A DNA stretch of 42,935 nt, taken from a bacterium (lineage in GTDB: Bacteria > Margulisbacteria > Marinamargulisbacteria > CANKTL01). The position numbers and the translations under genes are program-made. Below the pieces are notes generated by a model, which saw only the letters and a program-made list of their open reading frames with translations, had not been told where the DNA came from and ran no database searches. Numbering within the stretch: the first letter of the stretch is position 1; every line of letters starts with the position of its first letter. Positions 1,703 through 42,299 of the stretch are shown piece after piece. Where the stretch lies: positions 1-42,935 of the forward strand of contig CANKTL010000002.1 of the NCBI GenBank assembly GCA_947486405.1. Direction: 5' to 3'.

Positions 1703-1706
1703 GTCC

Positions 1707-3035
1707 ATGCAGGCCATAATTTTAACCGGTGGAAATGGCGCACTGCTTCGGCCCCTCACTTTTTCAACGCCCAAGCCCTTATTACCGCTACTTAATCAAC
1801 CTATTTTGCAATACATCATTCGACTGTTGATTCAGCAGGAAGCCAGCGAGATCATCGTAGCGGCTAATTATCGAAGTGAGCTGGTATTTTCCTGGATTAA
1901 CCAGCAACAGTGGCCGGTTCCGGTGCGCGGGCACGCCGTGGACGAATATAGGGGGAGCGCCCAAGTACTTTGGGACATGCGCGATCAACTTGCTGAGCGA
2001 TTTTTGGTTATTTTTGCAGACACCTTAGTAGATTTGCCAATGAAAGTCGCGTTTGACGCATTTTCAGAGTCAGGGGCCGCCGTTTGGATGGGACTCAGTG
2101 CGGACTCGGATCCGTTTTCACCGGCGTCACTGCGGGTACAGGACGGCGTGGCAACCGCGCTGATTCCGGGCCCATTAGAGAGTGGCTCGACGGCGACGGA
2201 TTTGGCCAGTGATGGGCGCTTTTATTTTTTAACCCGCGACGTGATTACCCAATATGGGGAAACCACGGCCAATATATTCCCTGATGTGGCGAGTGAGTTG
2301 ATAACCGCGAACGGCAGCATGCCGGTTGTGGCGGCCCCAGGGTTTTGGTCGGTGTTGGGCCGGTTAGAGCCCTACCTGGACGCGAATTTTACGCTCTTGT
2401 CTCAGCTGGGGATATCGTACGTGGATCCACGCGCAACAGTTCACCCTAGTGCCGTCATTCATGGCCCCGCGTTAATTGGTCCCGACTGTCACATCGGTGA
2501 AAACAGCGTGGTTGGGCCCTATGTGGTGATGGGACCGAATATTCAGGTCGGCTCTGACACGACAATTCAACATAGTATGGTGTTCACCGCAGTTCGCATT
2601 GGTGCAGGAGTTCATATTGATCGCTCGGTGATCGGTTTCTCTGCAACGGTTGAAGAAGGCGTTAGCATTGCGCCTCTGTGTATTGTGGGGGCCTATACCT
2701 GCATCGGCGCCAATTCAAAGTTAGCCTCGGGAAGCCGAGTTGGGCCCAATTTATCGGTCGCCCCTGATAGCCACATCGCCGACATTTTGTTTCCGCCCGA
2801 TCCCCTCAATGAGGATAACGATAACACTCAGAGCGCCCAGTATAAGGGCCTGGCCGCAATTGAATATGATGTGTTTAGGGTGATATCTCTTACGGGAGAT
2901 ATCACCGCCGCTCAAATTGCACTAAAGCTGGACTTGCCCAGTGAGTCCGTTATTCCAATTCTAAGTACGCTCGTACACCGTTCGCTGTTGATTCGCTCCG
3001 AATCGGGTGAGACTCGATTTAGTGTTCGTCCTTAA
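1707..3035 (+). CDS. Sugar-phosphate nucleotidyltransferase with a hexapeptide-repeat (left-handed beta-helix) region and a C-terminal winged-helix-like tail
   Basis: N-terminal signature ILTGGNGALLRPLTFSTPKPLLPL. Hexapeptide-like run IGENSVVGPYVVMGPNIQVGSDTTIQHSMVF..IGAGVHIDRSVIG..VEEGVSIAP. The tail ITAAQIALKLDLPSESVIPILSTLVHRSLLIRS looks like a wHTH. ATG 1707 is preferred over ATG 1677, which overlaps the upstream gene; the start is uncertain. Confidence 0.7.
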   Translation: MQAIILTGGNGALLRPLTFSTPKPLLPLLNQPILQYIIRLLIQQEASEIIVAANYRSELVFSWINQQQWPVPVRGHAVDEYRGSAQVLWDMRDQLAERFLVIFADTLVDLPMKVAFDAFSESGAAVWMGLSADSDPFSPASLRVQDGVATALIPGPLESGSTATDLASDGRFYFLTRDVITQYGETTANIFPDVASELITANGSMPVVAAPGFWSVLGRLEPYLDANFTLLSQLGISYVDPRATVHPSAVIHGPALIGPDCHIGENSVVGPYVVMGPNIQVGSDTTIQHSMVFTAVRIGAGVHIDRSVIGFSATVEEGVSIAPLCIVGAYTCIGANSKLASGSRVGPNLSVAPDSHIADILFPPDPLNEDNDNTQSAQYKGLAAIEYDVFRVISLTGDITAAQIALKLDLPSESVIPILSTLVHRSLLIRSESGETRFSVRP

Positions 3036-17693: not shown

Positions 17694-18380
17694 TTATTTG
17701 GTAATCGAGATGACCCGCAAGCCGCGCTTTTTGGCCGATACTAGCGCCGACAGAAAGCCGCGAGGTCCGGGAATGGATTGCATAATATCACTGGCTTTTT
17801 TGTGGTACTTTCGAATCGTGGGTAACGGTGTCAAATCCGCCATGCCCGATTTAAATCGATGCAATGGTGACGCTTCGATGCCGGATTTGAAGTGACTTAA
17901 ATCAATTCCAGGCGCCAAATCAAATTGAACACCCGCAAGATCAGCCCCACTCATCTCGATCAATTCAAATAACTGGGCCAACTTTACTTCCAACATTTTG
18001 GGGGAATGAACTGGACCTTTGGACTTAATTTCAGCCAAAATCGCCACCACATCCAGCTGGAGACGCAGGTAAATCTGCACGACATGCTTCAATTTGGTCA
18101 CCTGAGCAATGATTTCCGGGCGATCACCGATTCCCAACAACGCAATGATCTCCAACAAGCGATAAATCTTAGCAATCGCTATTTCCGAGGACAGCCCTTT
18201 ACCCCGAATTTCACTCAACAACGCCAAAATCATGCCAATAACTGACGCTATCAACACTTCACGCTTTTGCTGTCGTACCGCCTCTACCTGACTGGCCACG
18301 GACGCTTGGTACAACGTCATTATCTGCGCAATGCGATTAACATCAGGAGATGGATTAGGAATGATGCGTTCGACGGTCAT
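17694..18380 (-). CDS. Hypothetical all-helical protein (228 aa)
   Basis: Clean ORF downstream of the PorV-like gene on the same strand. Short internal repeat HFKSGIEAS / RFKSGMADL. No family recognised. Confidence 0.45.
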   Translation of the reverse strand: MTVERIIPNPSPDVNRIAQIMTLYQASVASQVEAVRQQKREVLIASVIGMILALLSEIRGKGLSSEIAIAKIYRLLEIIALLGIGDRPEIIAQVTKLKHVVQIYLRLQLDVVAILAEIKSKGPVHSPKMLEVKLAQLFELIEMSGADLAGVQFDLAPGIDLSHFKSGIEASPLHRFKSGMADLTPLPTIRKYHKKASDIMQSIPGPRGFLSALVSAKKRGLRVISITK

Positions 18381-18456: not shown

Positions 18457-18585
18457 GGGCGGTCAGAAAAGGCGTGAGATGTGCAATTTCTCGTTTTGCG
18501 CAGACTACCAAGGAGCGGAGCGAATGCGCAGCGGTGTAGTTAAGCAAAGCGAAAATTGTGCAGATTGCGTCTTTTGTGACTGCCC
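18457..18585 (+). repeat. Long-hairpin intergenic element, copy 1 (core 18466-18576)
   Basis: Near-identical to 33563-33677 and reverse-complementary to 40981-41089. It folds by hand into one long imperfect hairpin. It ends 1-10 nt from the stop of the convergent PorV-like gene. Confidence 0.85.
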
Positions 18586-19524
18586 TTACGGAATGAACAT
18601 GTAGCCTAGGCTAAATCTCCATACATCTGCGATAACGGTGTTTTCGGGATTGCTCCAGGACAGGTCCATTCTCAGCCGTTCTAAGTAGATGCCGGTACCT
18701 AATGTTAAATCAAACTTGGCGCCACCTTGAGTGGTTACGTTGTCCAATCCCAACCGAATCGGGACTATGGGGCTAACCCAGTATTCAGTACCCAAATGAT
18801 ACTTGAAAGGACGCGAAGGGCGGATATCAATATCTCCGGCTGCGATCCAATTCGGGAAAATCGCATAGTCTGCGCCAATCTTTAGATTGCGGGGTACGGT
18901 GTCCACGTTACCAGAGGCGGTGTTCCATACCATGCGCGGTTGCAGTGCATTTTGCACGATAGCCGCCACGGCCAATTGCTCCGACACTTTGTAACTTGCT
19001 GCGACATCGACACCATAGCCACTGGCCCGATTGGAATCTAAGGCTTCGGACAAGACTTTAACCGATGCGCCCAGGCTTAATTCAGGCGTGATTTGCTTCC
19101 CTGTAGAGAGGAAAACAGCGGACGCGCTATAAGAAAACTCGTCTCCGGTTGCAATAAATCGCCCACTATCGCTCAAGGTATCCAGAGTGGTCCGTCGAAT
19201 ACCGGGGGTATTTGCGCCATAAAAGCCCAAGCCCATCGACCATTCGCCAACCGGTCCGGCCACCTGAACATTTGAAAAATTGGTTTCAAACGCTGAAGTA
19301 ACCATACCGTTGACGTCGATATTTTTAACATTGGTCAATTTGGCAGGGTTCCAATACACCGACTGACTATCGCCCACCACACTCACATAGGCCATTCCCA
19401 TCCCAGCGGCCCGCGCCCCAATGCCTTGCTCGATAAACGCACCGGCATTGTCTGAGGCAAAAGCTGGCACCGTGGCCATAACTGCAATTCCGATTCCAAG
19501 TAATCCCTGTTTCATCATGGTCAT
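18586..19524 (-). CDS. PorV/PorQ-like outer-membrane beta-barrel protein
   Basis: Signal peptide ..AVMATVPAFA. N-terminal motif GARAAGMGMAYVSVVGDSQSVYWNPAKL is typical of PorV-like porins. The rest has an alternating beta-strand pattern. SD GGAGG; it starts 10 nt after the giant gene's stop. Confidence 0.65.
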   Translation of the reverse strand: MTMMKQGLLGIGIAVMATVPAFASDNAGAFIEQGIGARAAGMGMAYVSVVGDSQSVYWNPAKLTNVKNIDVNGMVTSAFETNFSNVQVAGPVGEWSMGLGFYGANTPGIRRTTLDTLSDSGRFIATGDEFSYSASAVFLSTGKQITPELSLGASVKVLSEALDSNRASGYGVDVAASYKVSEQLAVAAIVQNALQPRMVWNTASGNVDTVPRNLKIGADYAIFPNWIAAGDIDIRPSRPFKYHLGTEYWVSPIVPIRLGLDNVTTQGGAKFDLTLGTGIYLERLRMDLSWSNPENTVIADVWRFSLGYMFIP

Positions 19525-19534
19525 CCCCTCCTGC

Positions 19535-22500
19535 CTATTTCAACACCGCGATTTTAACTTTTTTCACAATTTTCTCACTACCGTTGTCGCAAAGAATGTA
19601 AGCCACATAGACACCATTCGCAACCAACTCACCATATTTGTTTCGGCCGTTCCACTGCACTGTATTAAATCCAGCAGTGCCATTGGTTTGACCTTTGATT
19701 AACTTCGTTTCCCACAATTTCTCACCGCTGATGCTGTATACATAAATTGTAACGTCGGCATCTTGAGACAATTGGTATTGAATGTTGGTGCTTTGCCGAT
19801 TGGGGTTAAATGGATTCGGACCGTTTAACACATTCGCCACTTGGAAGCCCGCTTCAATGTTGAAGGTTGGTGACTTGTAGACCGTGGTGTTGGCATTCAA
19901 GTCAGCCACCGTTAGCTGAGCGACATACTGGCCACCCCCCAATTTATTCAAGTTCATATTGGCCGTTACCAATGTATTACCGGTGGCACCGTTGCCATTA
20001 CCTGAATTGCTAACGCCGGTTACATCTGATGTCGCAAGCGTTGCGGTATCAATTTTGATCATCTTAATCGACCAGGCACCGACACCGGAATCACCCACTT
20101 GTGGTTCAGAAATCGTGAATTTTATTTTGGCACTGGTTTTAATATAGTCGCCAGCTTCGATAGTCTTGTCATCAAATTTTACTGAATTAACGGTTGGGGC
20201 AGTCTGATCCACCACATCCAAAACACCAAACAATGAGAAGTGAGTCACGCGAAATCTAATATATTTCTCGTCGGTATCGCCCACACCGTCTACAGCTAGT
20301 CGGTCAACTATTTCGATGTTGGAAATACCCTCTTGTGTCCAAGTTTTAGTCGCTGGGTTGAAGTACCACGGCTCAACACGGTTGGTAGAACCGGCTGGGA
20401 TTGGAATCGAGACGATGGCATATCGTTGTGATTGAAGGGCTTGGCCGATGGTTATATCCACCAACGACGCTGGGCCAGTTGCCAATCGACGGTAAGCCAC
20501 GGTGATCGGATATTCGCTGGGCTCGTGGTTAGTATCAATGATTGGTGCTACATCAGAAGCCAGTGATCCCACTGGGAAGTCCACATAGATCGGACCGGCC
20601 ACAGATGACGCGCCTGGCACTCGAAGACTTGAGCGAACGCCCCATTTTACGATGATCTCCGCACTGCGACTGGTTTCTCGGCCTCGGGCATCAATACCAG
20701 CCACTGAGATTCGGGCATCGCGGGTGTTATCAAAGCGAATGTTATCGAACACAAAGTAGTTAGGTTGATCTGCCGAGCCGACAATGGTTTTTGGAGAGGT
20801 TACCAAAGAAGTGACCTGAATATTTCGGGTAACGGCCTTAGAGGCAATGGTCGCCACAGGGCTACCGTTGATATAAAGCTTAACCTGAACAGTACCAGCA
20901 GACACGGTTCCGTATATCGCCGGGCTGGTCACTGAGGTATTTACAGATTCCGCCAACAAGCGTGGTACTGACGCAGGCTCAACTGCCGCCGGTGGGTTAA
21001 ATGTAATCACCGCATCAGTAGCGTTTACTGGATTGTGGTTTTCATCAAAGAACACTACTCGGATTGGGTTATCACCCGGCGCCAAGTTTGGAATCGTAAC
21101 GGTCCAAGTATTTCCGACCACCGTCGCAGGAATTACCGATCCATCAGGTAGGATAACTTCAACGACGGTCGCACCAGGTACCAAATTACCGGTTACGGTT
21201 TGTGTGCTGTTTGAGTTATCAGTTGGCACTACCACTTCGGTATCGAATCGATCCAAGACGGTGACAAGTCTTGAGTTACGGGTATCTTGCTTACGCAATA
21301 CGATGTTTTTAAGCGTTAACGTCACTGGATTGGCACTGGCGTTGTTACGATCAACCACCAATTGGATCGACTCGATATTATTTAGATCGATGCGATTATT
21401 CAGTACATCGCCGTTCACTGTATCCAATACAAATGCACTTGCGTTGATGGTCACGCCTGAAGTGAAGAATGCGTCACTCGAAACAAATGAAAACTCACGT
21501 TGCTTCCAAATTTCTTTTCGGCCATTTTCAGACCGCTCTACTGCTACTAGGTAGGTTTTTACGGGGGCATTAATCGATGATTTGATGTCATAAGTTAAAT
21601 AGCCCAAGGTGGCCGTCTGAGTTTGAAGTGAGCGTTCGTACAAACTAACCACTGCCGCACTGGCCTCAACGGTCGGCGTAATGATGATACCTTCACCCCA
21701 GTTGAACCCGGGTTGCGTATTATCAGAGTTACCTGCGTTAAAGTTGAGGGTCAATCCGGCAAATCCATCACCCGCCGCTAATGTGTTGGTAGCTGTAAAC
21801 AAGTTCAAGCCAGTCATAGACTTCAGTTCGTGTACCGGAATTTCGCCGTTGTTCCAGCTTACGATGAAATCTGAAACCACGTCTCGAACGTTGCCGTAGT
21901 AGTCAGTGACATTTCGAATACTAACCGTGGCCACCACTCGGTTGGCGCTTGCTGGAACGGTACCGGTAATTATCCACTCATCATTTACAAACTGAAGCGC
22001 TGCATCAGCAACGGCCTCACCGTTAGCGACAACTGCTACGGTCGGTCGAAGTGTGGTGCTTAAGCCACCCAATTCGTCAAAGTGCGGTTTAATTGTGAAT
22101 GAATTTGCAATGGGGTTGGCCACTACATTCGAAGTGACATATACCGGTCGGTCCGTGTCGTTGGCGGTTTTAACATCGTCAATCCACACTGTCGCGTTTC
22201 CGGTGGTTGCACCTCGGAATACAAAGTAGAAGATGTTTTTAACACCGTTTAAATCCAGTTGGCGGTTACCGACGGTACCTGCGGTGTCTAACTTAAAGAT
22301 TTGCTCATTCAATCCGAAGCCAAAGCGTTTGAAGTCGGTAGGCAATGTCACTCGGCGTGAAATCCATACTTCGTTATCTGAATCTTGCAGCGCCACTGCA
22401 AATTCAACAGATCCACTTGGCGCATTTGATTTTACAACCATTGCCAGAGTTTGCGCACCCGTGAAGTTATATGCGCTGCTGTCTGATTTGTTTTGAATCA

Positions 22501-25423
22501 GCAATGATCCCCAGTTGGGCTGACCGTTCACATCCGCACCGGTTCCGAAATCGTGAACCAATTTAATAGAGGCTACTGACTCAGGCAGCTTGTCGGTTAG
22601 CGTTGAGAAATCCAAGACGGTTGATACGGTATGGTTTTGAATTTCAAATGTGTTGTTTTCATTGTTAGGACCAAAGTGAGTCACTCGAGCAATGTTGCCA
22701 TCACGAACTACAGTAAAGCCTGGCGCTTCAGGATTTTCGGGATTGTTGCGGCCACTGATCGCGATTGCTTTGGTAAATGGCAACGAAACGTTTCCAGATT
22801 GGTCGATCACATTTGAAACCACTACGGTTACCGGTACTTGGCCAATTGGCAATGTGCCCGTTACCGTTAATTTAGAATTGGTAAATTGAGTGATGGTTAC
22901 CGGCACCACGGTGTCATCGCTAATGCGAGTCACAGTGATAGTCGGTTGTACAGCACCAACACCACCCAGCTCTTGGATGCTGGCTTCTAGTGTGAAGGTG
23001 TCGGCTTGAGAAGTAGTGGTCACGTCGGTAACAACGGGTTTCACATCGTCGATGCGGGTATGGACCATGTCCATATAAACTTCTGCGTTTCCAGTTGCGG
23101 TACCGCGGTAGATAAAATAGTAAACCGATTTAATGCGGGCCGCATCAAAAGTTTTGTTACCGCCAGTGGGTCCGGTTACATCTAAGGTTAAGGCCTTGTT
23201 GTCCAATCCCACTGAATACAATTCATACGCGTTGGTTAATGTGAATCGCTCAGACACCCATCGTTCATTGATTGCCGTGTTGCCGTTATCTTCTTCAAAT
23301 CCAATCGCCATTGTAATCGGTGCGCTGGCGTCTTTGGATTTTGCATAAAACCCAAGGGTACGGAACCCCGCCAAGTTAAACGCCGATTGATCGCGGTTGC
23401 GGTGAAGTAGAATAGCACCCCAGTTGGATACGCTGGCCGAATCACCCCGTGGTGTCGCAAAGTCTGTACCATCGCCAAATGCCAAGTTTACTTTCAATGC
23501 ACCCATTCCTGCCTGTGAGCTGGTTGAGTTTTGGAACACGGTGGTGTCGGTTAAGTTGAAGGTCAATCCGTTAGTGAAGTTCAAACCGGTGATCTGGGTA
23601 TTGCGAACCAATGGCGCGTCAAACGGAGGTTCATCAGTAAGGTCAAGGCGGGTTAAGTCATCCACCACGGTAGGTGTGCCCGCTACCGTATATTTTTGAC
23701 CAAAATCAAAAAAGGTTAGAACGGTTTGATTATTCGGGAGCGGCACAAACAAGGGGTTAAATTGCAGTTCTTGAGTTAATCTTGCGGTATTTCCTGCTAA
23801 GTCTCGAATGCCCGTAACATTTAATTGAACAGTGCCACCTGTAATAGATTCAGGCATTGTTCCAGCCAATAGCAACGATCCGTTTGTGTAAGATACAACG
23901 TTAACACCCACTACATTCGCGCCTTGCGCCAAAGTTACAGTTGGTCGAGCAGCATAATCCATACCACCGCCATCACTCACAGGCACTCTGATTTGGAAGT
24001 CACCACGCGTTAATGTTCGGTTGGTTAATGTTAGGTCACCCAGTTGAGGTGCCAATGTATCGGTATTCGATTTCAGGATCTCATCCAAGTAGATCGCTTG
24101 TGGTTGGTTATTGTCAGATGTTTTATAAAAGAAGTAATACACCGCTTTCACATTGTCTAAATTCAACACGCGATTGCCGTTTTGTGCGCCATCAGTGCTC
24201 AAACGAAGGGCTACGTTATTCAATCCCACTTCAAATCGTTGGTATGTCGCTGAGTTCAGCTTCATCCGGTCAGAAATCCAGATTTCTTGCTCAGCATCCG
24301 CACCGCCCTCTGCAAAGGCAACTGCAAATTGAACATCGCTATCGCTAGCATTCGCTTTTCGGGCATATAACGAAATATAGTCCCAGGTCGACAAATTCAT
24401 TGGAACCATCGTCGGATTCACTGCTGCACCGTTAGTTTGCTGCTCGTTTAACAACACGCCCCAGTTCACCGCAGAAACAGCTTGGTTGTTAAATGGAATA
24501 TCGATCCGAGCTGCGTTTGAACCTGCAAACACTTCCGCCGACACCGCATTTTCAGGTTTGAAAACGGTTGAAATGGCAAGTCCACCAGAAGTTAGCCCGT
24601 TAACCGCTGACAGTGAAAGGAAGTTAGGTTGAGTAGATAAAACACTGCGGGTATCGTTACCGCCGTCGCTTGAAGAAGTCGATGCCCCTTCAAAGTTTGC
24701 CAATATTCCCGATTCAATTGGATTTTGAGGCCGTGAATTTCGAGAAATCAAGATCGGCCCGCCCACTGCTGAGAAATCAGCGGCTCTTGAAATTGTTAAT
24801 GTTAGGTTATCCGCAAAAATGCTTTGCCCAGTACCGGTTGTGATCAATCGGATTTCAATAATATTAGTAAGGTCCAATGTGCCGTCTACCGGTGTACCGC
24901 TCACTTCATACTCAGAGGCATTCAGATCAGCCCCCATTACCGTGTAAGTCGTGTTAACGGTTTGAGCATTACGCTGAATCCACACTTCGCCACTGGCCTC
25001 AACTAGCGCAACCTTAGCGGTTACCCCCGTGCCAGACGCTTTCATGAAATAGATCAATTGGCGATATGAAGTAAGGTTGGTTCGGCCATCAACAAAATAT
25101 TCCCACGACATTTGGCCAGGGGCTTGTGTATAGGCTAAAGATCGGTTGCCCGCATATTTTTGAGCTGGGGCAGTCGTTAAACCCATTTGGGTAGCACCAT
25201 TTTCAATCAGGTGCCATCGGGCCGTTACATCGGCGGGATTCGGCAATTCCGCGTCTTCTAAAATTCGGTCAGCAAAACCACTCGCGCCACCTCCCAAATT
25301 GACATCGAATGAAACAACGACGTCGGCGGCAAACACAGTCGTTGCCCCCACTACAGCCACGACGGCAAGCGCAATTCCCTGCCCCAAAAGTCTCATTAAT
25401 CCTGTTTTAATTTGTATTCTCAT
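19535..25423 (-). CDS. Giant modular cell-surface protein with a FlgD-Ig/T9SS-type C-terminal domain
   Basis: Signal peptide MRIQIKTGLMRLLGQGIALAVVAVVGATTVFA. Four to five diverged ~300-350 aa modules, each with a jelly-roll-like part (NWG..L...; E.WIS.R; NLDNVK..YYF.Y) and an Ig-like part. C-terminus NPFNPNRQSTNIQYQL..VTIYVYSISGEKLW..VQWNGRNKYGELVANGVYVAYI. ATG 25423 has the SD GAGG; an alternative ATG lies at 25462. Confidence 0.8.
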   Translation of the reverse strand: MRIQIKTGLMRLLGQGIALAVVAVVGATTVFAADVVVSFDVNLGGGASGFADRILEDAELPNPADVTARWHLIENGATQMGLTTAPAQKYAGNRSLAYTQAPGQMSWEYFVDGRTNLTSYRQLIYFMKASGTGVTAKVALVEASGEVWIQRNAQTVNTTYTVMGADLNASEYEVSGTPVDGTLDLTNIIEIRLITTGTGQSIFADNLTLTISRAADFSAVGGPILISRNSRPQNPIESGILANFEGASTSSSDGGNDTRSVLSTQPNFLSLSAVNGLTSGGLAISTVFKPENAVSAEVFAGSNAARIDIPFNNQAVSAVNWGVLLNEQQTNGAAVNPTMVPMNLSTWDYISLYARKANASDSDVQFAVAFAEGGADAEQEIWISDRMKLNSATYQRFEVGLNNVALRLSTDGAQNGNRVLNLDNVKAVYYFFYKTSDNNQPQAIYLDEILKSNTDTLAPQLGDLTLTNRTLTRGDFQIRVPVSDGGGMDYAARPTVTLAQGANVVGVNVVSYTNGSLLLAGTMPESITGGTVQLNVTGIRDLAGNTARLTQELQFNPLFVPLPNNQTVLTFFDFGQKYTVAGTPTVVDDLTRLDLTDEPPFDAPLVRNTQITGLNFTNGLTFNLTDTTVFQNSTSSQAGMGALKVNLAFGDGTDFATPRGDSASVSNWGAILLHRNRDQSAFNLAGFRTLGFYAKSKDASAPITMAIGFEEDNGNTAINERWVSERFTLTNAYELYSVGLDNKALTLDVTGPTGGNKTFDAARIKSVYYFIYRGTATGNAEVYMDMVHTRIDDVKPVVTDVTTTSQADTFTLEASIQELGGVGAVQPTITVTRISDDTVVPVTITQFTNSKLTVTGTLPIGQVPVTVVVSNVIDQSGNVSLPFTKAIAISGRNNPENPEAPGFTVVRDGNIARVTHFGPNNENNTFEIQNHTVSTVLDFSTLTDKLPESVASIKLVHDFGTGADVNGQPNWGSLLIQNKSDSSAYNFTGAQTLAMVVKSNAPSGSVEFAVALQDSDNEVWISRRVTLPTDFKRFGFGLNEQIFKLDTAGTVGNRQLDLNGVKNIFYFVFRGATTGNATVWIDDVKTANDTDRPVYVTSNVVANPIANSFTIKPHFDELGGLSTTLRPTVAVVANGEAVADAALQFVNDEWIITGTVPASANRVVATVSIRNVTDYYGNVRDVVSDFIVSWNNGEIPVHELKSMTGLNLFTATNTLAAGDGFAGLTLNFNAGNSDNTQPGFNWGEGIIITPTVEASAAVVSLYERSLQTQTATLGYLTYDIKSSINAPVKTYLVAVERSENGRKEIWKQREFSFVSSDAFFTSGVTINASAFVLDTVNGDVLNNRIDLNNIESIQLVVDRNNASANPVTLTLKNIVLRKQDTRNSRLVTVLDRFDTEVVVPTDNSNSTQTVTGNLVPGATVVEVILPDGSVIPATVVGNTWTVTIPNLAPGDNPIRVVFFDENHNPVNATDAVITFNPPAAVEPASVPRLLAESVNTSVTSPAIYGTVSAGTVQVKLYINGSPVATIASKAVTRNIQVTSLVTSPKTIVGSADQPNYFVFDNIRFDNTRDARISVAGIDARGRETSRSAEIIVKWGVRSSLRVPGASSVAGPIYVDFPVGSLASDVAPIIDTNHEPSEYPITVAYRRLATGPASLVDITIGQALQSQRYAIVSIPIPAGSTNRVEPWYFNPATKTWTQEGISNIEIVDRLAVDGVGDTDEKYIRFRVTHFSLFGVLDVVDQTAPTVNSVKFDDKTIEAGDYIKTSAKIKFTISEPQVGDSGVGAWSIKMIKIDTATLATSDVTGVSNSGNGNGATGNTLVTANMNLNKLGGGQYVAQLTVADLNANTTVYKSPTFNIEAGFQVANVLNGPNPFNPNRQSTNIQYQLSQDADVTIYVYSISGEKLWETKLIKGQTNGTAGFNTVQWNGRNKYGELVANGVYVAYILCDNGSEKIVKKVKIAVLK

Positions 25424-25671
25424 TGTGACCTCATCCCCCTTTTGCCTTAAACTACCTATCAACCTTTACGCATACTTTGAGTTCAAATTTTATCGTTGGT
25501 AGGGTGTTCCCCACTAAGTTATCGAATCAAGGCTGGGTAAATTTCATTCTGTTTGGGATTGCGGTAAGGAGAGTGCTTGAAAATATAAAGACCCAGCTTC
25601 GGCAGGATTATCTCTGATTTTTTTCAAATTATCTAGCGAATAATTAATGGTGTGTGATACTGTTTGACGCT

Positions 25672-29762: not shown

Positions 29763-30110
29763 ATGGCACGAGTAAAACGGGGTAATGTCGCCCGAAACCG
29801 ACGCAAAAAAGTATTAAAAATCACCAAGGGATTCGTAGGATCTCTTTCTAAGCTATACCGCCCGGCCCACCAGGTTATGTTGCATGCGCTTAAGTATGCC
29901 TACCGTGACCGCCGACGCCGTAAACGAGATTTCCGCGTTCTATGGATCGCTCGAATCAATGCTGGATTGGGCAACGTGGGCGTTTCATACTCTAAATTTA
30001 TTGGCCAAGCCAACAAAAAGAGCGTTGCGTTGAATCGTAAAATGTTAGCTAGCTTAGCTGTACACGAACCCAACGTATTTTCTGAAGTCGTCACATTCGT
30101 CACTAAATAG
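29763..30110 (+). CDS. rplT: 50S ribosomal protein L20
   Basis: [39 protein letters not shown] is typical of L20. Confidence 0.92.
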
Positions 30111-30123
30111 AAGGGAATTTCGC

Positions 30124-30621
30124 ATGATCGAAATGCAGTTAGGCGGACTTGGATTCGACCCTAAAAACATGTCGCCTATTGTACTGCTGCGGGACGCTGA
30201 AGAGCGAAATTTTTTACCTATTTGGATTGGGATGTTTGAAGCAGCGGCAATCGCTATGGAATTGCAAGAATTCAAACCTCCTCGCCCCATGACACACGAC
30301 CTTATTACCAAACTTATTAAAGAGCTGGGTGGTACCGTGACCCGAGTGGTCATCAACGAAATTAACGACAACACCTTTTTTGCGCTCATCGAGCTTACCA
30401 AGGGGAACGGCAGTCATACTCCCATCAAAATCGATTCGCGTCCTTCTGACGCCATTGCCGTCGCCGTGAGAGCCAATGTTCCGATCTTTGTATCTGAGGC
30501 AGTGATGGCCAAGGCCAAAATGGTAAATTCAGAAAAAGACGAGCAAGAAACCAAGCAATTCAAAGACTTCGTAGATAACCTAAACCCGGACGATTTCTCG
30601 AAATACTTCGACGAACGCTAA
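30124..30621 (+). CDS. Bifunctional nuclease (DUF151/BFN) family protein
   Basis: PIVLLRDAEERNFLPIWIGMFEAAAIA..RPMTHDL..VVINEINDNTFFA..IDSRPSDAIAVAVR matches the BFN-domain pattern. Confidence 0.7.
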   Translation: MIEMQLGGLGFDPKNMSPIVLLRDAEERNFLPIWIGMFEAAAIAMELQEFKPPRPMTHDLITKLIKELGGTVTRVVINEINDNTFFALIELTKGNGSHTPIKIDSRPSDAIAVAVRANVPIFVSEAVMAKAKMVNSEKDEQETKQFKDFVDNLNPDDFSKYFDER

Positions 30622-31009
30622 GGGGGCCAATGCCCCCCACTCGCAGGATTTCCCACGCATCAGGTAAGTACCGATTCACTTTTTCATTGCCGCGCAAGGC
30701 TTCGATGGCCTTCCACCAAAAATCGGTAATGCTAGGTTGTTCTCGCATGGCGCCTTTAAACATCGCCCTTAACTGATCTATTGGGGCCTGCCTCAACGGC
30801 ACAGGAATGTCAGCACCCGCTCCAAAAAAAGCCCTAAGCGTTGCCAAATGCCTCGGCGGCACGCATCCAAACTCGGGGAATCCGCCAATTCGGTCTATGA
30901 GGGTTTTAGTAAGGTGCCTAAAGGTTGTTCGGCTTACCCCGATTTTTAAGGCACCCCAAATATAAAATTCATGACTTACAACATAGCCGGCGATTAATTT
31001 ATATATCAT
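30560..31009 (-). CDS. Hypothetical protein with a possible N-terminal helix-turn-helix
   Basis: 149 aa ORF in the 447 nt gap between the BFN gene and tRNA-Arg. SD GAGGAAA. GVSRTTFRHLTKTLIDRIG is HTH-like. The last 62 nt overlap the convergent BFN gene. Confidence 0.4.
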   Translation of the reverse strand: MIYKLIAGYVVSHEFYIWGALKIGVSRTTFRHLTKTLIDRIGGFPEFGCVPPRHLATLRAFFGAGADIPVPLRQAPIDQLRAMFKGAMREQPSITDFWWKAIEALRGNEKVNRYLPDAWEILRVGGIGPLSVRRSISRNRPGLGYLRSL

Positions 31010-31068
31010 CCGTGCATTTCCTCTTCGTCCGTGAATCCAAATATGTTAACTTAACAAAGGTAGTGTAT

Positions 31069-31145
<77 letters not shown>

Positions 31146-31205
31146 TTTATTTTTATAGAAAGGCCGCCCGGCCATTTGACTCTCCCGGGTGGTAATATCA
31201 ACCCA

Positions 31206-31724
31206 ATGTCATTTAAACTCATTTCTAACCCTACATTAAGACACTATATTCAACTAGGTCCTAAGCTATCAGACATCGGCCCGTTTTGCCTTCAGATTGG
31301 GGCCGGGGTTCTAGCATTTTCGGGTTCTGATGCTGCACAGAAATATTATGATCCCTCAAAAGGTGATGGTTTTAAATTTACCTACATATTGAATGTCGCG
31401 AAAGTCGAGGGAGACCCTTCGCAATCTGGCGCTGTCCGCTTTTACCCCGTGAGAGAAGGTGACACTAATGGCTACCGTGAAATTGCGAAGCGAACTTTTC
31501 CTGAAATACAAGCGGTTTTATTGCGTGGTGAGAATGTGCTAATTCATTGCAGGGAGGGTCAAGTTCGCTCAACAACCCTATTTATGTTTTTTTTGACCGA
31601 GACCCTTTGCCAGCCAATTTCGACCGCTCGCTCGTGGGTACGAACGCTGAGTACAAGCACAAACCCAACTATGTCGCTTTTTCGGTATGCTGCGTCACTC
31701 CCGTCTCTGACCGAGGTCGACTGA
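31206..31724 (+). CDS. Dual-specificity (Cys-based, CX5R) protein phosphatase-like protein
   Basis: Active-site signature VLIHCREGQVRST (HCxxGxxRS/T), with an upstream YPVREGD candidate general-acid loop at the usual distance. ATG 31206 is preferred over TTG 31176. Confidence 0.65.
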   Translation: MSFKLISNPTLRHYIQLGPKLSDIGPFCLQIGAGVLAFSGSDAAQKYYDPSKGDGFKFTYILNVAKVEGDPSQSGAVRFYPVREGDTNGYREIAKRTFPEIQAVLLRGENVLIHCREGQVRSTTLFMFFLTETLCQPISTARSWVRTLSTSTNPTMSLFRYAASLPSLTEVD

Positions 31725-31731
31725 CTCAAAC

Positions 31732-32514
31732 TCACCTATTTTTGAGCTCGAGTTCGGCCAATACCACGTCCATAAAGTTCGCAAACGGCCTTGTCACCTT
31801 TCCAAACGATTTACTTGTTGAAGGCGAAACACACCCAGGGTCTATTAAGTAGGCCTGTCCGGTATCTGGCGAAAATATAAGTTGAGGGTCTTGAACTGAA
31901 CATTTCCAACTGCTAATTATTTCGAGGCGTTGATGAAGAGTCCTTAATGCATCAAGGGACATCGATTTAATTTTGTCACGTGCCACCTGGGAAACGTCGT
32001 GCTGCCCCCCAATTTGACCGAATGGCACTGTAATCGCATTCGGGAGCCATTCCATCGCAACTCCGCCTGATTTACCTAATACAGGCTCCTCAACAAGGTA
32101 AACCGCGGGAAATACTTCCGGGTTCTTAGAATACACACTCAAATCCAGAGACGAAAAATTCTGAACTAAGGCCCGTGTTGCTGAAGAATGGGAGGTGGGT
32201 TCCCCCTTGTTGTCGAAAAGAAAGTGTCGTTTTGGGGATGAAGTACCCGCCAACACGCAATTTGATGGCCAATTTTTATCATCTGGACTCGGCAGAACCC
32301 AGTCGGCGGGTGGTGATGGCAGCAGAGTAGCCCTTGGATTTCTCTCCGGCATAGTCTCCAAGTAACCCTCATCCTCCTCTCCAATTGAACCCATACTAGG
32401 CGGCGACGTCGCCTTAACCGGTGCACTAGCCGGAAATTTGGGCGGTGGAGTTTGCGGCGGTGAAATCGGCAACGCCGGGCCCATTGCAATAATTTTCTTA
32501 TAAATAACATCCAT
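31732..32514 (-). CDS. Proline-rich protein with a possible degenerate kinase-like C-terminal region
   Basis: The N-terminal ~90 aa are Pro/Ser-rich (PPQTPPPKFPASAPVKATSPP). In the C-terminal part, VAMEWLPNA and VQDPQLIFSPDTGQAYLIDPG weakly resemble the hinge, catalytic loop and metal-binding loop of kinase-like folds. Confidence 0.45.
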   Translation of the reverse strand: MDVIYKKIIAMGPALPISPPQTPPPKFPASAPVKATSPPSMGSIGEEDEGYLETMPERNPRATLLPSPPADWVLPSPDDKNWPSNCVLAGTSSPKRHFLFDNKGEPTSHSSATRALVQNFSSLDLSVYSKNPEVFPAVYLVEEPVLGKSGGVAMEWLPNAITVPFGQIGGQHDVSQVARDKIKSMSLDALRTLHQRLEIISSWKCSVQDPQLIFSPDTGQAYLIDPGCVSPSTSKSFGKVTRPFANFMDVVLAELELKNR

Positions 32515-32576
32515 GTTATTAAAGGGATTCCCATTTTGAGCCTAGATTTAAACACTGGCCCCGATTTACTACTCAA

Positions 32577-32936
32577 CTAGTTCGTGGAATGCACCGGTTT
32601 TGGGGACTCTTCCGGCTGAGCAGGAACTGGGCTTGGCCACAGGCGGTTTAGTCTTTCCATTTGATCATCTGTGAGTTTCATACTGCTTAGGATATCGAGA
32701 ACACCGGTCATCGTTAGATTGACGTGCTCAAATTGCTGATCCATCACCGCCGAGGGGTCGGCGTGCTGGAATTCTTCCAGTTGCGTGGAGATGCTGTTTA
32801 TTGTGGAATGGAGCATGCGGTTTTGATTGAGAACCAGCGCTAGAATAATTAATTCACCCAGTGCCAAGAGAACGATTGCCCACCAGATTGCGCCACCGTT
32901 TCGTTTCAGTCCTTTGGATTCTTTATATTTGTACAT
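32577..32936 (-). CDS. Single-pass membrane protein, unknown function
   Basis: One TM segment, AIWWAIVLLALGELIILALVL, after a Lys-rich N-terminus. ATG 32936 has AAGGAA upstream; an alternative ATG lies at 32978. It sits directly upstream of the 31732-32514 gene on the same strand. Confidence 0.45.
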   Translation of the reverse strand: MYKYKESKGLKRNGGAIWWAIVLLALGELIILALVLNQNRMLHSTINSISTQLEEFQHADPSAVMDQQFEHVNLTMTGVLDILSSMKLTDDQMERLNRLWPSPVPAQPEESPKPVHSTN

Positions 32937-33038
32937 CGGTATTTTATTCCTTTTTTGCCAACCCAAATTTAGACCCATTTGGCAGGTAAATCGATTGAGG
33001 AACTCATTCTAGGGAGTATTCGCTTGAATTTCAACCGC

Positions 33039-33067
33039 TTGAACTTGATGTAAATCTATGGCAAAAT
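33039..33067 (+). promoter_or_regulatory. Candidate promoter for rpmB-rpmG
   Basis: TTGAAC at 33039-33044, a 17 nt spacer, then TGg-CAAAAT at 33059-33067. Sequence pattern only. Confidence 0.3.
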
Positions 33068-33106
33068 CTCATTTCCCTGCAAATTAACTGGGGAGGAGGA
33101 AGAATT

Positions 33107-33331
33107 ATGTCACGAAAAGATACACTAACCGGTAAAGGCAAACTTAAAGGAAATCGAGTTAGTCACTCAAATATCAAAACTAGCCGACCCCGCGAGCTTA
33201 ATTTGCAAACCCAAAAGGTGGTATTGCCAAACGGACGCGTTGTAAAACTTAAAGTTTCAACCCGCACCCTCCGGACGATTTCGAAAAAAGGCATTTCGTC
33301 TGTGCTAAAAAAGAATAACGTTAAATTTTAA
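33107..33331 (+). CDS. rpmB: 50S ribosomal protein L28
   Basis: MSRKDTLTGKGKLKGNRVSHSNIKTSR..NLQ..RTLRTI.K.G is typical of L28. Strong SD GGAGGAGG. Confidence 0.9.
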   Translation: MSRKDTLTGKGKLKGNRVSHSNIKTSRPRELNLQTQKVVLPNGRVVKLKVSTRTLRTISKKGISSVLKKNNVKF

Positions 33332-33343
33332 AAAGGAACTGAC

Positions 33344-33505
33344 ATGGCAAAAAAAGGCGTTCGCATTCATATTGAAATGGAAAGTGAAGAAACCGGCCAC
33401 CGGTACCACACCTTCAAAAACAAACAAAACACGGCTGAGAGACTCAAGGTAAAAAAATACGATCCGATCGCGCGTAAGCATACTGAGTACACCGAAAAGA
33501 AATAG
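33344..33505 (+). CDS. rpmG: 50S ribosomal protein L33 (Cys-free form); too short for the ORF track
   Basis: Hand translation gives [53 protein letters not shown] (53 aa). YxTxKNK..LxxKKYDP..RKHxxxxE is the L33 pattern. SD AAAAGGAA. It starts 12 nt after rpmB. Confidence 0.85.
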
Positions 33506-33562
33506 GCTCTTTAAGCACACTTCGTTTTTATTTTTTCGTCCTATCCTAGACCACTAGACAAT

Positions 33563-33677
33563 AAAAAAGTCGTGAGATGTGCAATTTCTTGTTTTGCGCA
33601 GACTACCAAGGAGCGGAGCCATCAGGCGAAGCGGTGTAGTTAAGCAAAGCGAAAATTGTGCAGATTGCGTCTTTTTT
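33563..33677 (+). repeat. Long-hairpin intergenic element, copy 2
   Basis: AAAAAAGTCGTGAGATGTGCAATTTCTTGTTTTGCGCAGACTACC...GGTGTAGTTAAGCAAAGCGAAAATTGTGCAGATTGCGTCTTTTTT. It is flanked by A6 and T6 runs and sits between the convergent rpmG and 33683-34102 genes, so it could serve as a bidirectional terminator. Confidence 0.85.
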
Positions 33678-33682
33678 GTTGC

Positions 33683-34102
33683 CTACCGCTTGGCTGGCCA
33701 GCGGGTGATGCCGAAGGAACTTATGGCTAGGCACGCTATGGTGTAGCTTAGGAAGATTAGGGCTGATGGTATGGAATACCCTGAGAACAAAAACAGGGGT
33801 AGCAATAGAGGCACAAAGAACGCGCCCCATAGTTTTAGGGTTCTGAAGAATGCGTTTGAGAAATTGTGGATGTTTTCTTTTATGAATAGTTGGGCGAAGA
33901 AAATGTTCAGTTGGTACGCTAAGGCGATGCCGATTAGGTAGATGAAAACGCCATAGGCCCCGACATCTTCTACGGATTTGCTGAGTCCGATCACCCAGAT
34001 TTCGCCAAACATATAGTTAGAATACCAAAGAGTGCCCAATAGTTGGTAGGCGATGACAACACAGAAAAGTGTGGTCCAATTAATTCTTGCTTGGCGTCTC
34101 AT
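33683..34102 (-). CDS. DUF1761-like small integral membrane protein
   Basis: Four hydrophobic segments. N-terminal INWTTLFCVVIAYQLLGTLWYSNYMFGEIW resembles the DUF1761 signature. Confidence 0.55.
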   Translation of the reverse strand: MRRQARINWTTLFCVVIAYQLLGTLWYSNYMFGEIWVIGLSKSVEDVGAYGVFIYLIGIALAYQLNIFFAQLFIKENIHNFSNAFFRTLKLWGAFFVPLLLPLFLFSGYSIPSALIFLSYTIACLAISSFGITRWPAKR

Positions 34103-34190
34103 GGTACTCGAAATCCTACCAAACCCTGTAGCTTTTTCAAAGTACTTCCGGCGGATTCTATTTTATTGGGATGACGGATATAATCACGGG

Positions 34191-35924: not shown

Positions 35925-35953
35925 ATTTCGATTATTTTATAAATATATTTTTA

Positions 35954-35982
35954 TTGACGTAATTAACTAGCGCTGGTATTTT
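35954..35982 (+). promoter_or_regulatory. Candidate extended -10 promoter upstream of ssb
   Basis: TTGACG at 35954-35959, a 17 nt spacer, then TGg-TATTTT at 35974-35982. This would give a leader of about 180 nt before ATG 36170. Confidence 0.4.
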
Positions 35983-36169
35983 GATCCAGTGACAATGTGC
36001 ATTGCCTGTATCGGTTTGGATGGAGCTAAGCTGTTACGATCAGAACTTGCCCTGCATTAGGGCTGAAACGATCTTGGGGGGTCAGCTAGAAGCGCTGCTA
36101 AATGACCTAACGGGGCCTTTCAGACCAAAACGGGCTCAAAAATACCCTTTTTAAGGAGTTTGAAAAACG

Positions 36170-39839: not shown

Positions 39840-40982
39840 ATGTCTGAACCAAGGCTTGATGTATCGGTGATTCTGCCGACCTATAACGAATCTGAAAATT
39901 TACCCCAGATTATCCCGATGATTTCGGCCGCGCTGCGCGACACCAACCTTAGCCACGAGATTGTGGTGATGGACGACCATTCGCCAGACGGCACTTATGC
40001 GGTGGCCTTGTCATTGGCGGATCAATTTCCGGTTCGGGCGATTGACCGGGTGGGGCTGCAACGTGGATTAAGTGCCGCTGTGATTGATGGATTTAAGGCC
40101 GCAACGGGTACGGTGGTAGCGGTGATGGATGCGGATATGAGCCATCCAATAGCGGTGCTGCCGGACATGGTGAAACGCATTTTGGACGGCAGCACTGATA
40201 TTGCGGTGGGCAGCCGGAACGTACCTGGCGGTGGCGCCGTGGAATGGCCCTGGTACCGCCGTTTGATTTCAAGTACTGCTGCTTGGCTAACTTTTGGCAT
40301 TACGCCGATGAGCGATCCCACTACCGGCTATATGGCAGTGCGTCGCTCGGTGTTGGAGTTTGATCGGTATAACCCCATCGGTTGGAAAATTGTATTGGAA
40401 ATTGTGGCCAAGCATCCCCAAGCCGATTTAAGCGAAATACCCATCGTGTTTCAAGATCGGCAATTTGGTAAAAGCAAAATGAGCTTGAAAGAACAGCGCC
40501 AATATATTCGGCATTTGCTGCGCCTCTATGACGAAAAATGGCCGTCCCTGTTTGAATTTTTGCGCTTCGGCGCAGTGGGGGCAACGGGGGTGATTGTGGA
40601 TACCATTGGCTCCTCCACCACAATTTTTTTCCTGGCCTCGGTGTTCGGGCTTCAATTCCAGTCCAGTTGGGCCGTCCGAGAATCGGCCTTGATATTGGGG
40701 GCGGCGATTGGGTTTTCACTGGCTTTAACTTCTAATTTCTTTTTGAATCGCAACTGGAGTTTTAAACACGGGGCGAAATTGCCGCTGGGATCTAGCTACT
40801 TTCGCTATTTGTTGGTGAATAGCCTCGGGCTGTGGCTACGTCTAGCGGTGGTATCGGTATTGGCGTTTTTCTTCACTTCCATTCCAGCGTTACAGGGAAT
40901 TAATTTAATTGGGATTTTAGTCGCCTGCGCCTTTAATTTTGTGGGGATCAAGTATTGGGCCTTCAAAAAGAGGATCGACTGA
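39840..40982 (+). CDS. Family-2 glycosyltransferase (polyprenyl-phosphate mannose/glucose synthase-like) fused to a GtrA-like membrane domain
   Basis: VILPTYNESENL, MDDHSPDGT, VMDADMSHP, GSRNVPGGG are typical of DPM1/Ppm1-type GT2 enzymes. The C-terminal ~130 aa have four TM segments with FLRFGAVGATG (GtrA-like). Confidence 0.8.
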   Translation: MSEPRLDVSVILPTYNESENLPQIIPMISAALRDTNLSHEIVVMDDHSPDGTYAVALSLADQFPVRAIDRVGLQRGLSAAVIDGFKAATGTVVAVMDADMSHPIAVLPDMVKRILDGSTDIAVGSRNVPGGGAVEWPWYRRLISSTAAWLTFGITPMSDPTTGYMAVRRSVLEFDRYNPIGWKIVLEIVAKHPQADLSEIPIVFQDRQFGKSKMSLKEQRQYIRHLLRLYDEKWPSLFEFLRFGAVGATGVIVDTIGSSTTIFFLASVFGLQFQSSWAVRESALILGAAIGFSLALTSNFFLNRNWSFKHGAKLPLGSSYFRYLLVNSLGLWLRLAVVSVLAFFFTSIPALQGINLIGILVACAFNFVGIKYWAFKKRID

Positions 40983-41089
40983 AAAGACGCACAAGCTGCA
41001 CAATTTTCGTAACGCTTAACTACACGCTGCGCTATCCGCTCGCGGTAGTCTACGCGTTTCGAGAAATTGCACATCTCACGCGTCTTTTC
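40981..41089 (-). repeat. Long-hairpin intergenic element, copy 3 (inverted relative to copies 1 and 2; most diverged)
   Basis: Reverse complement reads GAAAAGACGCGTGAGATGTGCAATTTCTCGAAACGCGTAGACTACC..GTGTAGTTAAGCGTTACGAAAATTGTGCAGCTTGTGCGTCTTTTC. Perfect 10 bp outer stem GAAAAGACGC/GCGTCTTTTC. Its first 2 nt overlap the TGA stop of the GT2 gene. Confidence 0.85.
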
Positions 41090-41156
41090 AGCCGGTTCAA
41101 TTTAGTACCTCTGGTCTTCACTTTAATCTTTTTTTAATATATTGTGTGCTGAGTAT

Positions 41157-42299
41157 ATGAGTTCACTATTTAAAATTGTGGGGTTGCCCCCAGAAATTCG
41201 GCATTTATTTAAAGCCGGTTTGTCGGCTGAAATGGTCCATCATCTAAATGATGTTTATCAACGCATAACAGGTAGCCCCATTTTGAAAATGGGATCTAAG
41301 ACTACCCCACTTCGCCCATTAAAAAGCATCGAAATACCGGGCGCTGATATCTGGATTAAAAACGAAACGGCCAATCGTGTTCATTCCTTTAAATGGCGCG
41401 GGGCGTATCACCTTATGCATCGGCTGTTCGGAGGTTCGGATCAGGTCGATAGGCGGGTGTGCACTGCCTCAGCGGGTAATCACGCTCAGGGAGTGGCCGC
41501 TGCAGCCAGAGACTTACAAGTTAGGGCAACTATAGTGATGCCAACCACGGCGGATCCGGTAAAGATCGGACGGGTAAGGGAAATTGGTGGGGAGTTCGTA
41601 GATGTGGTGCTCGTAGGGGCGACCTTCAATGACGCACTCACCCATGCCAATGGCCTAATGGCAGCGGATCCCAGCCAAATTTTTGTACATCCCTATGATG
41701 ATTTAGATGTGATGGCCGGGCAAGGCACTATCGGAATCGAAATACAAAGACAGCTTGCTTGTGGTATGAACGCTGACTTTGACTGGATTGCCGTGCCCGT
41801 TGGGGGCGGCGGCCTTTTGGCCGGTATGCTAGTTGGTATTAAAGCTACCCGTCCTGAGGTCAAAATTTTGGGAGTTGAGATGGCGGGAACGGAACGCCTG
41901 CCCGCGTTGATGGAGACTGGCCAACGAATTATGTTAACCACTGTCAATCCGTATGCGGGGGGTGTTGCCGTCAAACAGCTAGGGGCCCAAACCGCGCCTA
42001 TTATTCATGCACTGCTGGATGCGTATGTAGCCGTTTCAGACGAGGCTGTTATGGAAAGCATGTTGGTATTGAATTTAGACCGACCCGATATCGTGGAACC
42101 GTCAGGGGCTCTAGCCTTGGCTGGACTGACAGCCCATATTGAACAGCTTCGAATGCAAGGGGCCTTGGATGACCGGACCGCCTTAAAATGTCTGGCGGTG
42201 GTCAGCGGGGGGAATTATGAAAAAAGCCGCTCTGCGTCAGATTTAGAGAGCGCGCGTGACCGTCAGGGATTGGCCGTCAGAAGCGCCTCAATACCTTGA
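41157..42299 (+). CDS. PLP-dependent threonine/serine dehydratase-like enzyme (Trp-synthase beta superfamily)
   Basis: PLP-lysine motif HSFKWRGAY, ASAGNHAQG, glycine loop PVGGGGLLAG. ATG 41157 is preferred over TTG 41142. No clear ACT regulatory domain. Confidence 0.75.
   Translation: MSSLFKIVGLPPEIRHLFKAGLSAEMVHHLNDVYQRITGSPILKMGSKTTPLRPLKSIEIPGADIWIKNETANRVHSFKWRGAYHLMHRLFGGSDQVDRRVCTASAGNHAQGVAAAARDLQVRATIVMPTTADPVKIGRVREIGGEFVDVVLVGATFNDALTHANGLMAADPSQIFVHPYDDLDVMAGQGTIGIEIQRQLACGMNADFDWIAVPVGGGGLLAGMLVGIKATRPEVKILGVEMAGTERLPALMETGQRIMLTTVNPYAGGVAVKQLGAQTAPIIHALLDAYVAVSDEAVMESMLVLNLDRPDIVEPSGALALAGLTAHIEQLRMQGALDDRTALKCLAVVSGGNYEKSRSASDLESARDRQGLAVRSASIP

Follow-up and report, generated by a model that had tools for sequence, protein, structure and literature searches.

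Along a 42,935-nt stretch of contig CANKTL010000002.1 (assembly GCA_947486405.1; the whole of this stretch is referred to as the window), a sequence able to fold into one long hairpin is found at three intergenic positions, each time against the stop codon of a gene. The question raised by these loci is whether such sequences are copies of a mobile repeat or functional elements of the host, acting as RNA or as DNA. The three-copy hairpin repeat is real and represents a previously undescribed family; the element is best classed among the small intergenic palindromic repeats, outside any named family. The reading favoured here, to which a probability of about one half may be given, is that of a lineage-restricted family of non-autonomous intergenic repeats of approximately 130 nt, of the REPIN/MITE kind. 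The positions of the copies, here called w1, w2 and w3, and of the neighbouring genes are reported in Table 1.

Table 1. Copies of the hairpin repeat, invariant blocks of copy w1 and neighbouring genes, with positions in the window and, for the copies, the score of the covariance model.
Feature	Position	Strand	Remarks	Score (bits)
Copy w1	18457..18585	+	complete element, single hairpin including the outer stem GGGCGGTCA/TGACTGCCC	140.1
Invariant 5' block ATGTGCAATTTCT of w1	18479..18491	+	5' side of the invariant middle stem	
Invariant 3' block AAAATTGTGCAG of w1	18552..18563	+	pairs with the 5' block	
Copy w2	33556..33684	+	without the 5' outer arm; then six T	124.8
Copy w3	40974..41096	-	diverged subfamily, inner-stem pairs swapped on both arms	116.4
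Gene downstream of w1, no Pfam match	17694..18380	-	same strand as the PorV-like gene	
Weak PorV-like gene	18586..19524	-	stop TAA 18586-18588 touches the 3' end of the w1 hairpin	
rpmB-rpmG (L28, L33; PF00830, PF00471)	33107..33505	+	w2 starts about 50 nt past the rpmG stop, in sense	
rpmB (L28, 74 aa)	33107-33331	+		
rpmG (L33, 53 aa)	33344-33505	+		
DUF1761 gene	33683..34102	-	converges on w2; TAG 33683-33685, 2-5 nt from the hairpin base	
GT2-GtrA glycosyltransferase gene	39840..40982	+	TGA 40980-40982 inside the w3 base	
PLP-dependent enzyme gene	41157..42299	+	downstream of w3	

The repeat status of the element was evaluated at the level of short oligomers, of alignments and of a covariance model. 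The 18-mer GTGAGATGTGCAATTTCT occurs exactly three times in the window, where 0.02 occurrences are expected on the basis of shuffled sequences, and CGAAAATTGTGCAGATTG is found three times with at most one mismatch, against an expectation of 0.12. The three regions align over about 115-130 nt, and a scan of the window with the covariance model, performed with the filters off, detects w1, w2 and w3 and nothing else. The three locations proposed by a first-pass annotation of this DNA are thus confirmed by the sequence itself, by the exact 18-mers and by the alignment; the core of about 110 nt given there does correspond to a repeat, but the repeated unit measures approximately 130 nt, since the outer stem is homologous between copies. 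Within the core, w1 and w2 are 92% identical (104/113), and w3 is 74% identical to w1. The left flanks of w1 and w2 turn unrelated right at the base of the hairpin, which, together with the 92% identity of their cores, indicates a duplicated unit with sharp ends.

The first-pass statement that the element contains no ORF, and that no transposase is found in the window, was also borne out. A conserved small ORF was sought, and the SD-ATG of copy 1 was found to be missing from the other copies; a protein search with the six reading frames of the element, concatenated, gave no match at E <= 1. Transposases of any kind are absent from the window and from its 8-kb extension, and no integrase is present among the annotated genes of these regions.

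Further members of the family were obtained from metagenomes, by using a pattern based on the two arms. The scan produced 28 loci, of which three (L035, L036 and L044) are true relatives, all of them from metagenome Ga0114967. These three contigs carry four more copies, two of which are arranged in tandem on L035, so that the family totals seven copies in two organisms. Each of these is extragenic, and three of them occur within 51 kb. The second copy of the tandem, located at about 1700-1905 (-) of L035, contains a branched insert of about 90 nt at its apex. This insert holds a perfect mini-hairpin with A/T runs (AAAAATGTGACTAAAAGTCACGTTTTT); in the copy that bears it the outer stem is lost, and the otherwise invariant helix described below is altered (TGTACAA / TTGCGCA).

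Searches in other collections gave negative results. The exact 18-mer was found 16 times in 185,579 reference genomes (species representatives), in no case accompanied by the second arm; since this number is about what we estimate to be expected by chance for 596 Gb, the reference genomes contain no family member. Among viral contigs, the two-arm pattern detected one unrelated phage coding region only, and plasmid and phage collections contain no match to the element. When the window was compared to Rfam 15, only three tRNAs reached the gathering threshold, in agreement with the earlier statement that the element is not a known RNA family; a permissive scan of copy 1 against the same release returned noise from miRNA precursors (E 0.59 and 3.4), scoring 17 and 14 bits where 95 and 71 are required. 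Core oligomers, searched in the literature, gave chance matches to primers only.

The region of the window is also found, at 99.94% identity, in the NCBI MAG GCA_965002935.1, and, as part of a 138-kb contig (k141_3171075), in the ENA assembly ERZ27280196. Three assemblies carry identical copies, and neither empty sites nor presence/absence differences between strains were seen. An exact search with rpmG identified the same species only. The ribosomal protein bL20 obtains its highest scores with chains of Pseudomonas and E. coli, those with Flavobacterium being lower; in spite of a weak PorV match in the window, the organism is thus probably outside Bacteroidota. Among the loci reached through the GT2 protein, a 70%-identical relative has no intergenic space at the site, and 50%-identical relatives have no copy. 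In the 70%-identical relative (L051), the closest one, the PLP gene is absent between GT2 and PMT_2, which overlap tail to tail, and w3 and the PLP gene may have arrived together. The PLP gene is threonine-dehydratase-like, without a regulatory domain; among 5.8 billion proteins, no homologue of its product exceeds 46% identity. In other assemblies of the same species, contigs L060 (end 4256) and L062 (end 506) and one contig of ERZ21844626 stop within or just before w2, which suggests that the element breaks assemblies, either as a repeat or as a long palindrome.

The whole element folds as one hairpin of about 47 bp. Minimum-free-energy folds of w1, w2 and w3 reproduce the stems which had been drawn by hand at first pass. 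With RNA parameters, the strand on which each copy is reported in Table 1 (the written strand) gives -69.2 kcal/mol for w1 (z -9.5), -48.2 for w2 (z -5.8) and -61.5 for w3 (z -8.6); the corresponding values for the complementary strand are -37.4, -22.9 and -47.8 kcal/mol, the z of the w2 complement being -1.4. When DNA parameters are used, all six copies are again more stable on the written strand, as in the case of w1 (-33.3 vs -19.0 kcal/mol).

Covariation statistics were obtained from six aligned sequences, 58-92% identical to each other. In this alignment 93.3% of the pair cells are paired, while column shuffles yield 83.6%, with none out of 500 reaching the observed value, and slid controls yield 34-53%. 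Changes on both sides are found at 13 of the 40 pairs, and at 18 of 47 when wider flanks, including the outer stem, are considered. The compensatory exchanges reported in the first-pass annotation for the inner stem of copy 3 and for the apical stem of copy 2 are real, according to the pair table and to the folds. They had been interpreted as selection on structure; the changes themselves stand, but selection on a host RNA and selection on a mobile intermediate are not separable by covariation alone, and a compensatory pattern has been described for REPINs (PMC3116915) and for bcr1 (PMC3184786) as well. The asymmetry in G.U pairs between the two strands, also part of that annotation, proved to be strong: 35 G.U-type cells, distributed over 13 pair positions, are opposed to a single A.C-type cell, an excess indicating that one strand is the folding strand.

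Sequence conservation is concentrated in two inverted blocks, ATGTGCAATTTCT and AAAATTGTGCAG, which are identical in all six aligned copies and spaced by 67-75 nt in each of them. The blocks form a helix of 10 bp, in which pairs 30-39 with 107-116 are unchanged in 6/6 copies and two tandem wobble pairs (U.G and G.U) are invariant. The inner stems, the outer stem and the apex are all variable between copies; the apex is hypervariable, and contains a semi-conserved purine-rich motif, GAGCGGAGC..GCGYAGCG. An extension of the stem had been regarded as special to copy 1. It is not, as homologous outer stems, with consensus AACCGGTC on the left and GACCGGTT on the right, are found in w1, in w3 and in two metagenome copies (L035b and L044), with a constant length of about 21-25 pairs, counted outward from the invariant helix. 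In w2 and L036 the 3' outer arm is kept and the 5' outer arm is absent. The hypothesis that the outer stems are older terminator hairpins, which received the insertion, was ruled out on the grounds of their homology in four copies and of their constant length. Pairwise core identity is 58-77% for all pairs except w1/w2; the identity within the window (74%) is no higher than that to the metagenome copies (63-77%), and judging from these values, the copies within the window and the metagenome would belong to old, mixed lineages.

Conservation begins exactly at the base of the hairpin; upstream of this point no conservation was detected among the aligned copies, and the ends are the least conserved part of the element. 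The base is formed by an A-run and a T-run (AAAAG...CTTTT), so that either strand consists of a hairpin followed by 4-6 U. Direct repeats of at least 3 nt were not found at the ends of any copy, the flanks being inverted rather than direct. When folded alone, the half-arms form weak structures (-5 to -12 kcal/mol), which do not agree with one another and have no stem in common. A T-rich segment located just after rpmG (33518-33539) is 73% complementary to the 5' base of w2 (33553-33574); the two segments could form an alternative pairing or represent a remnant, or the match may be due to chance, the sequence being rich in A/T.

The location of the copies relative to genes was evaluated locus by locus. 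Copy w1 has a minus-strand gene on either side and is antisense to the two of them; the transcript of the PorV-like gene, whose match is below the cut-off (23.4 bits vs 27), would carry the weaker-folding complement. Copy w2 is located between the convergent genes rpmG (+) and DUF1761 (-). Its context differs from the one originally proposed, as rpmB and rpmG had been overlooked and their region taken as a long gap. Copy w3 lies between two plus-strand genes, antisense to both; the conserved part of the GT2-GtrA protein ends at WAFKK, six codons before the stop. In the metagenome, the copy on L044 is antisense to tRNA-Lys, at 1-2 nt from its CCA end, the one on L036 precedes pheS by 44 nt, in sense, and the tandem copies of L035 are immediately upstream of a DNA polymerase III alpha gene, in sense. 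Altogether, three of the six loci are antisense to both neighbours, one is between convergent genes and two are in sense to the downstream gene; because of this mixed orientation, the asymmetric strand is often not the transcribed one.

In four of the six loci, 0-5 nt separate the 3' end of the written strand from that of a converging gene or tRNA, and two loci break the rule. Accordingly, the first-pass claim that the element always abuts the stop codon of a converging gene holds for the three copies of the window and fails as a rule outside them, as at L036 (pheS) and L035 (DNA polymerase III alpha). Two further claims had to be abandoned. The better-folding RNA is not regularly antisense to the adjacent gene, as w2 is in sense to rpmB-rpmG and the L035 and L036 copies are in sense to their downstream genes; nor is there a tie to envelope or membrane genes, as related copies are found beside tRNA-Lys, pheS and the DNA polymerase III alpha gene.

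As for the surrounding sequence, the GC skew passes from negative to positive values at about 32 kb (window about 30000-36000), independently of gene strand: plus-strand genes at 25.6-31 kb have negative values, and minus-strand genes at 36.5-39.8 kb positive ones. The switch near 33 kb could correspond to a change of replication direction. The presence of a replication origin at this point was considered and ruled out, as no DnaA-box cluster is found.

Among known repeats, the closest comparison is with REPINs, doublets of REP sequences which form hairpins and are mobilised by RAYT tyrosine transposases (Bertels & Rainey 2011, PMC3116915). In the GI REPIN of Pseudomonas fluorescens the invariant 16-mers are separated by 71 bp, and REPIN hairpins are reported to show compensatory changes commonly (PMC3116915). 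In the family described here, the two invariant inverted blocks are likewise set at a fixed spacing (67-75 nt vs 71 bp), the sequence between them is less conserved but retains its length and its pairing through compensatory changes, and a long hairpin is predicted in single-stranded DNA or RNA; in both cases the sequences are strictly extragenic, are found in either orientation, contain no ORF and are not associated with target-site duplications. The block arrangement, the spacing and the compensatory hairpin are therefore those of a REPIN, but no REP is contained within the blocks: as indicated by the folds of the half-arms, they lack the self-folding, GC-rich REP palindrome. In addition, a further outer stem of about 20 bp flanks the blocks, and no RAYT is found among the genes of the window and of its 8-kb extension. 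Nor does the element show sequence similarity to the REP/BIME and ERIC repeats of E. coli: in 5,426 complete E. coli genomes, blastn with word size 11 found nothing similar to copy 1 at E <= 0.01.

The element also resembles, in size and position, MITE-like families such as ERIC, RUP, CIR and SPRITE, listed by Delihas (PMC3184786), where comparable families of 100-130 nt are included. Like ERIC/IRU, RUP, Correia/nemis, CIR and RU-3, which measure about 105-157 nt, it is an imperfect palindrome over its full length; as reported for repeats of the ERIC, RUP and CIR type, it is intergenic, often at gene 3' ends, in either orientation and with hairpins at the RNA level, those repeats being co-transcribed (PMC3184786). 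Repeats of the ERIC type differ in that they end in inverted repeats and are flanked by short target duplications, TA in the case of ERIC, whereas no direct repeat of at least 3 nt is found here, so that the element departs from a classical MITE on this point; sequence similarity to these families is also lacking. The bcr1 repeat of the Bacillus cereus group is an interspersed repeat in which compensatory changes keep the predicted RNA structure (PMC3184786), as is the case here; unlike bcr1, the present element is a single hairpin, with no direct repeats. An interspersed repeat of about 105 nt, with a terminator-like fold and located at gene ends, is described in the same work (PMC3184786); compared to it, the stem found here is much longer, at about 47 bp, and the T-run of 4-6 nt is paired with the A-run.

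A resemblance to integron attC sites was also considered, the element being an imperfect palindrome in the same size range and next to a stop codon. AttC sites are imperfect palindromes of 57-141 nt, located directly after a stop codon; they are recognised as folded single strands, their sequence being variable and their structure conserved. The identification was ruled out, as RYYYAAC/GTTRRRY boxes are missing from the ends and no integrase is present. The ends of the element read AAAAG../..CTTTT or AACCGGTC/GACCGGTT, and a lone GTTAAGC is found inside one arm, without a partner. Furthermore, unlike attC, the copies are not arranged in a cassette array, and their flanking genes are core ones (rpmG, tRNA, pheS).

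If the family is a non-autonomous repeat of the REPIN/MITE kind, it would spread via a single-stranded intermediate of the written strand. This intermediate would be recognised as a hairpin by a trans-acting enzyme, putatively encoded elsewhere in the genome, for which an HUH/Y1 transposase (RAYT or IS200-type) is the obvious candidate; enzymes of this class are described as handling IS200/IS605 ends and REPs strand-specifically, as single strands (PMC6006769). Recognition in hairpin form would constrain every lineage still copying to retain the fold, its G.T/G.U wobbles and the two invariant blocks. Once inserted, a copy would ride in the transcripts of its neighbours, where the A-run/hairpin/T-run shape would probably behave as a putative bidirectional terminator or 3'-end stabiliser; such an effect would explain the survival of copies flush against gene ends. 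The strand asymmetry is better explained by a single-stranded intermediate, since in half of the loci the worse-folding strand is the one that the neighbouring genes would transcribe and no promoter is conserved, and the tolerance of the apex for an insert of about 90 nt in one copy also supports a repeat. Against this reading, neither a transposase in the window and its extension, nor an empty site, nor a target-site duplication of at least 3 nt was observed; the arms do not contain a conserved short hairpin of the REP type, and, differently from a classical MITE, the conserved blocks are internal to the arms and not terminal. The location against 3' ends, observed in four of the six loci, could also be the result of a host function rather than of an insertion bias.

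An alternative reading, possible but on the whole unlikely, is that of a cis-acting RNA of the host, kept at each locus as a signal for bidirectional termination, for 3'-end protection or for RNase III-type processing between genes. The runs at the base, leaving a hairpin followed by 4-6 U on both strands, are what it would predict, as is the position of w2, in sense after rpmB-rpmG and ending in six T; a gene or tRNA 3' end is within 0-5 nt in 4/6 loci, other terminator-like hairpins are scarce around these genes, and many known repeats are co-transcribed and influence mRNA stability (PMC3184786). However, the transcripts of the neighbours of w1, w3 and L044 would carry the complement, which folds far worse (-37 vs -69 kcal/mol), and local selection would not produce 35 G.U-type cells against one A.C-type cell on the other strand. 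In spite of the T following the hairpin on both strands, a consensus scan for intrinsic terminators calls none of the three copies, and blocks of 13 nt which never vary are not needed by a terminator. It is similarly doubtful that the family is a new class of host-functional structured nucleic acid rather than a selfish repeat, acting either as a separately made antisense RNA or as single-stranded DNA, in which the invariant helix would dock a dedicated protein, and the tail-to-tail placement at gene and tRNA 3' ends would control 3'-end formation or stability.

The copies may alternatively be small RNA genes, in which transcription of the written strand alone would yield a hairpin RNA of about 130 nt, active in trans or as antisense to the 3' end of the converging gene, with a protein recognising the invariant helix and its tandem wobble pairs. 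Strand asymmetry and covariation are both strong, and the invariant 10-bp helix with tandem U.G/G.U, the semi-conserved purine-rich apical motif, the T-run after the hairpin on the written strand and the tail-to-tail arrangement with a gene in four loci all fit. Nonetheless this explanation is improbable. Nothing is conserved upstream of the hairpin base, where no sigma-70-like promoter was found, and the lack of shared upstream sequence argues against an independently transcribed antisense RNA gene; moreover, two copies are devoid of the 5' outer arm, one has an apical insert of about 90 nt, and the neighbouring genes are unrelated (envelope genes, rpmG, tRNA-Lys, pheS, DNA polymerase III alpha gene). 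Least probable of all is a function at the DNA level, in which the element would form a cruciform or be bound in double-stranded form by a nucleoid or replication protein, with the orientation tied to the fork. BIME/REP elements bind gyrase or IHF, and the invariant blocks could be a protein-binding site of this sort; w1 (+) and w3 (-) flank the GC-skew switch near 33 kb and would thus point the same way relative to the fork, and the hypervariable apex would fit cleavage and repair at the hairpin tip, as may occur in long palindromes. A double-strand site, on the other hand, would function without a wobble bias and without compensatory changes in its variable stems. The skew signal is weak and not accompanied by a DnaA-box cluster, and w2, located at the switch, is assignable to neither side.

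Should the REPIN/MITE-like reading be correct, the family would constitute a REPIN-like hairpin repeat of an uncultured lineage, absent from the reference genome set and with conserved blocks unrelated to known REP sequences, which would extend the range of within-genome replicators; the two invariant blocks would then offer a handle for finding the enzyme that moves them. Should a host function be responsible instead, the element would represent a structured RNA motif not described before, in which covariation and strand asymmetry are unusually clean. The element is also relevant to the annotation of MAGs, as it appears to break metagenome assemblies, sits on gene boundaries, and supplies or touches stop codons.

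Two other features of the window may be mentioned. Its beginning (11-1702, +) encodes a fragment of a KaiC-like ATPase and, after it, a protein in which a response regulator is fused to a KaiC domain. At 19535-25462 (-), adjoining the weak PorV-like gene, a protein of 1975 aa is encoded, in which the only match is a weak, C-terminal, FlgD_ig-like one, of the sort given by T9SS-type sorting domains; in view of the bL20 scores, an assignment of the organism to Bacteroidota is nevertheless doubtful.
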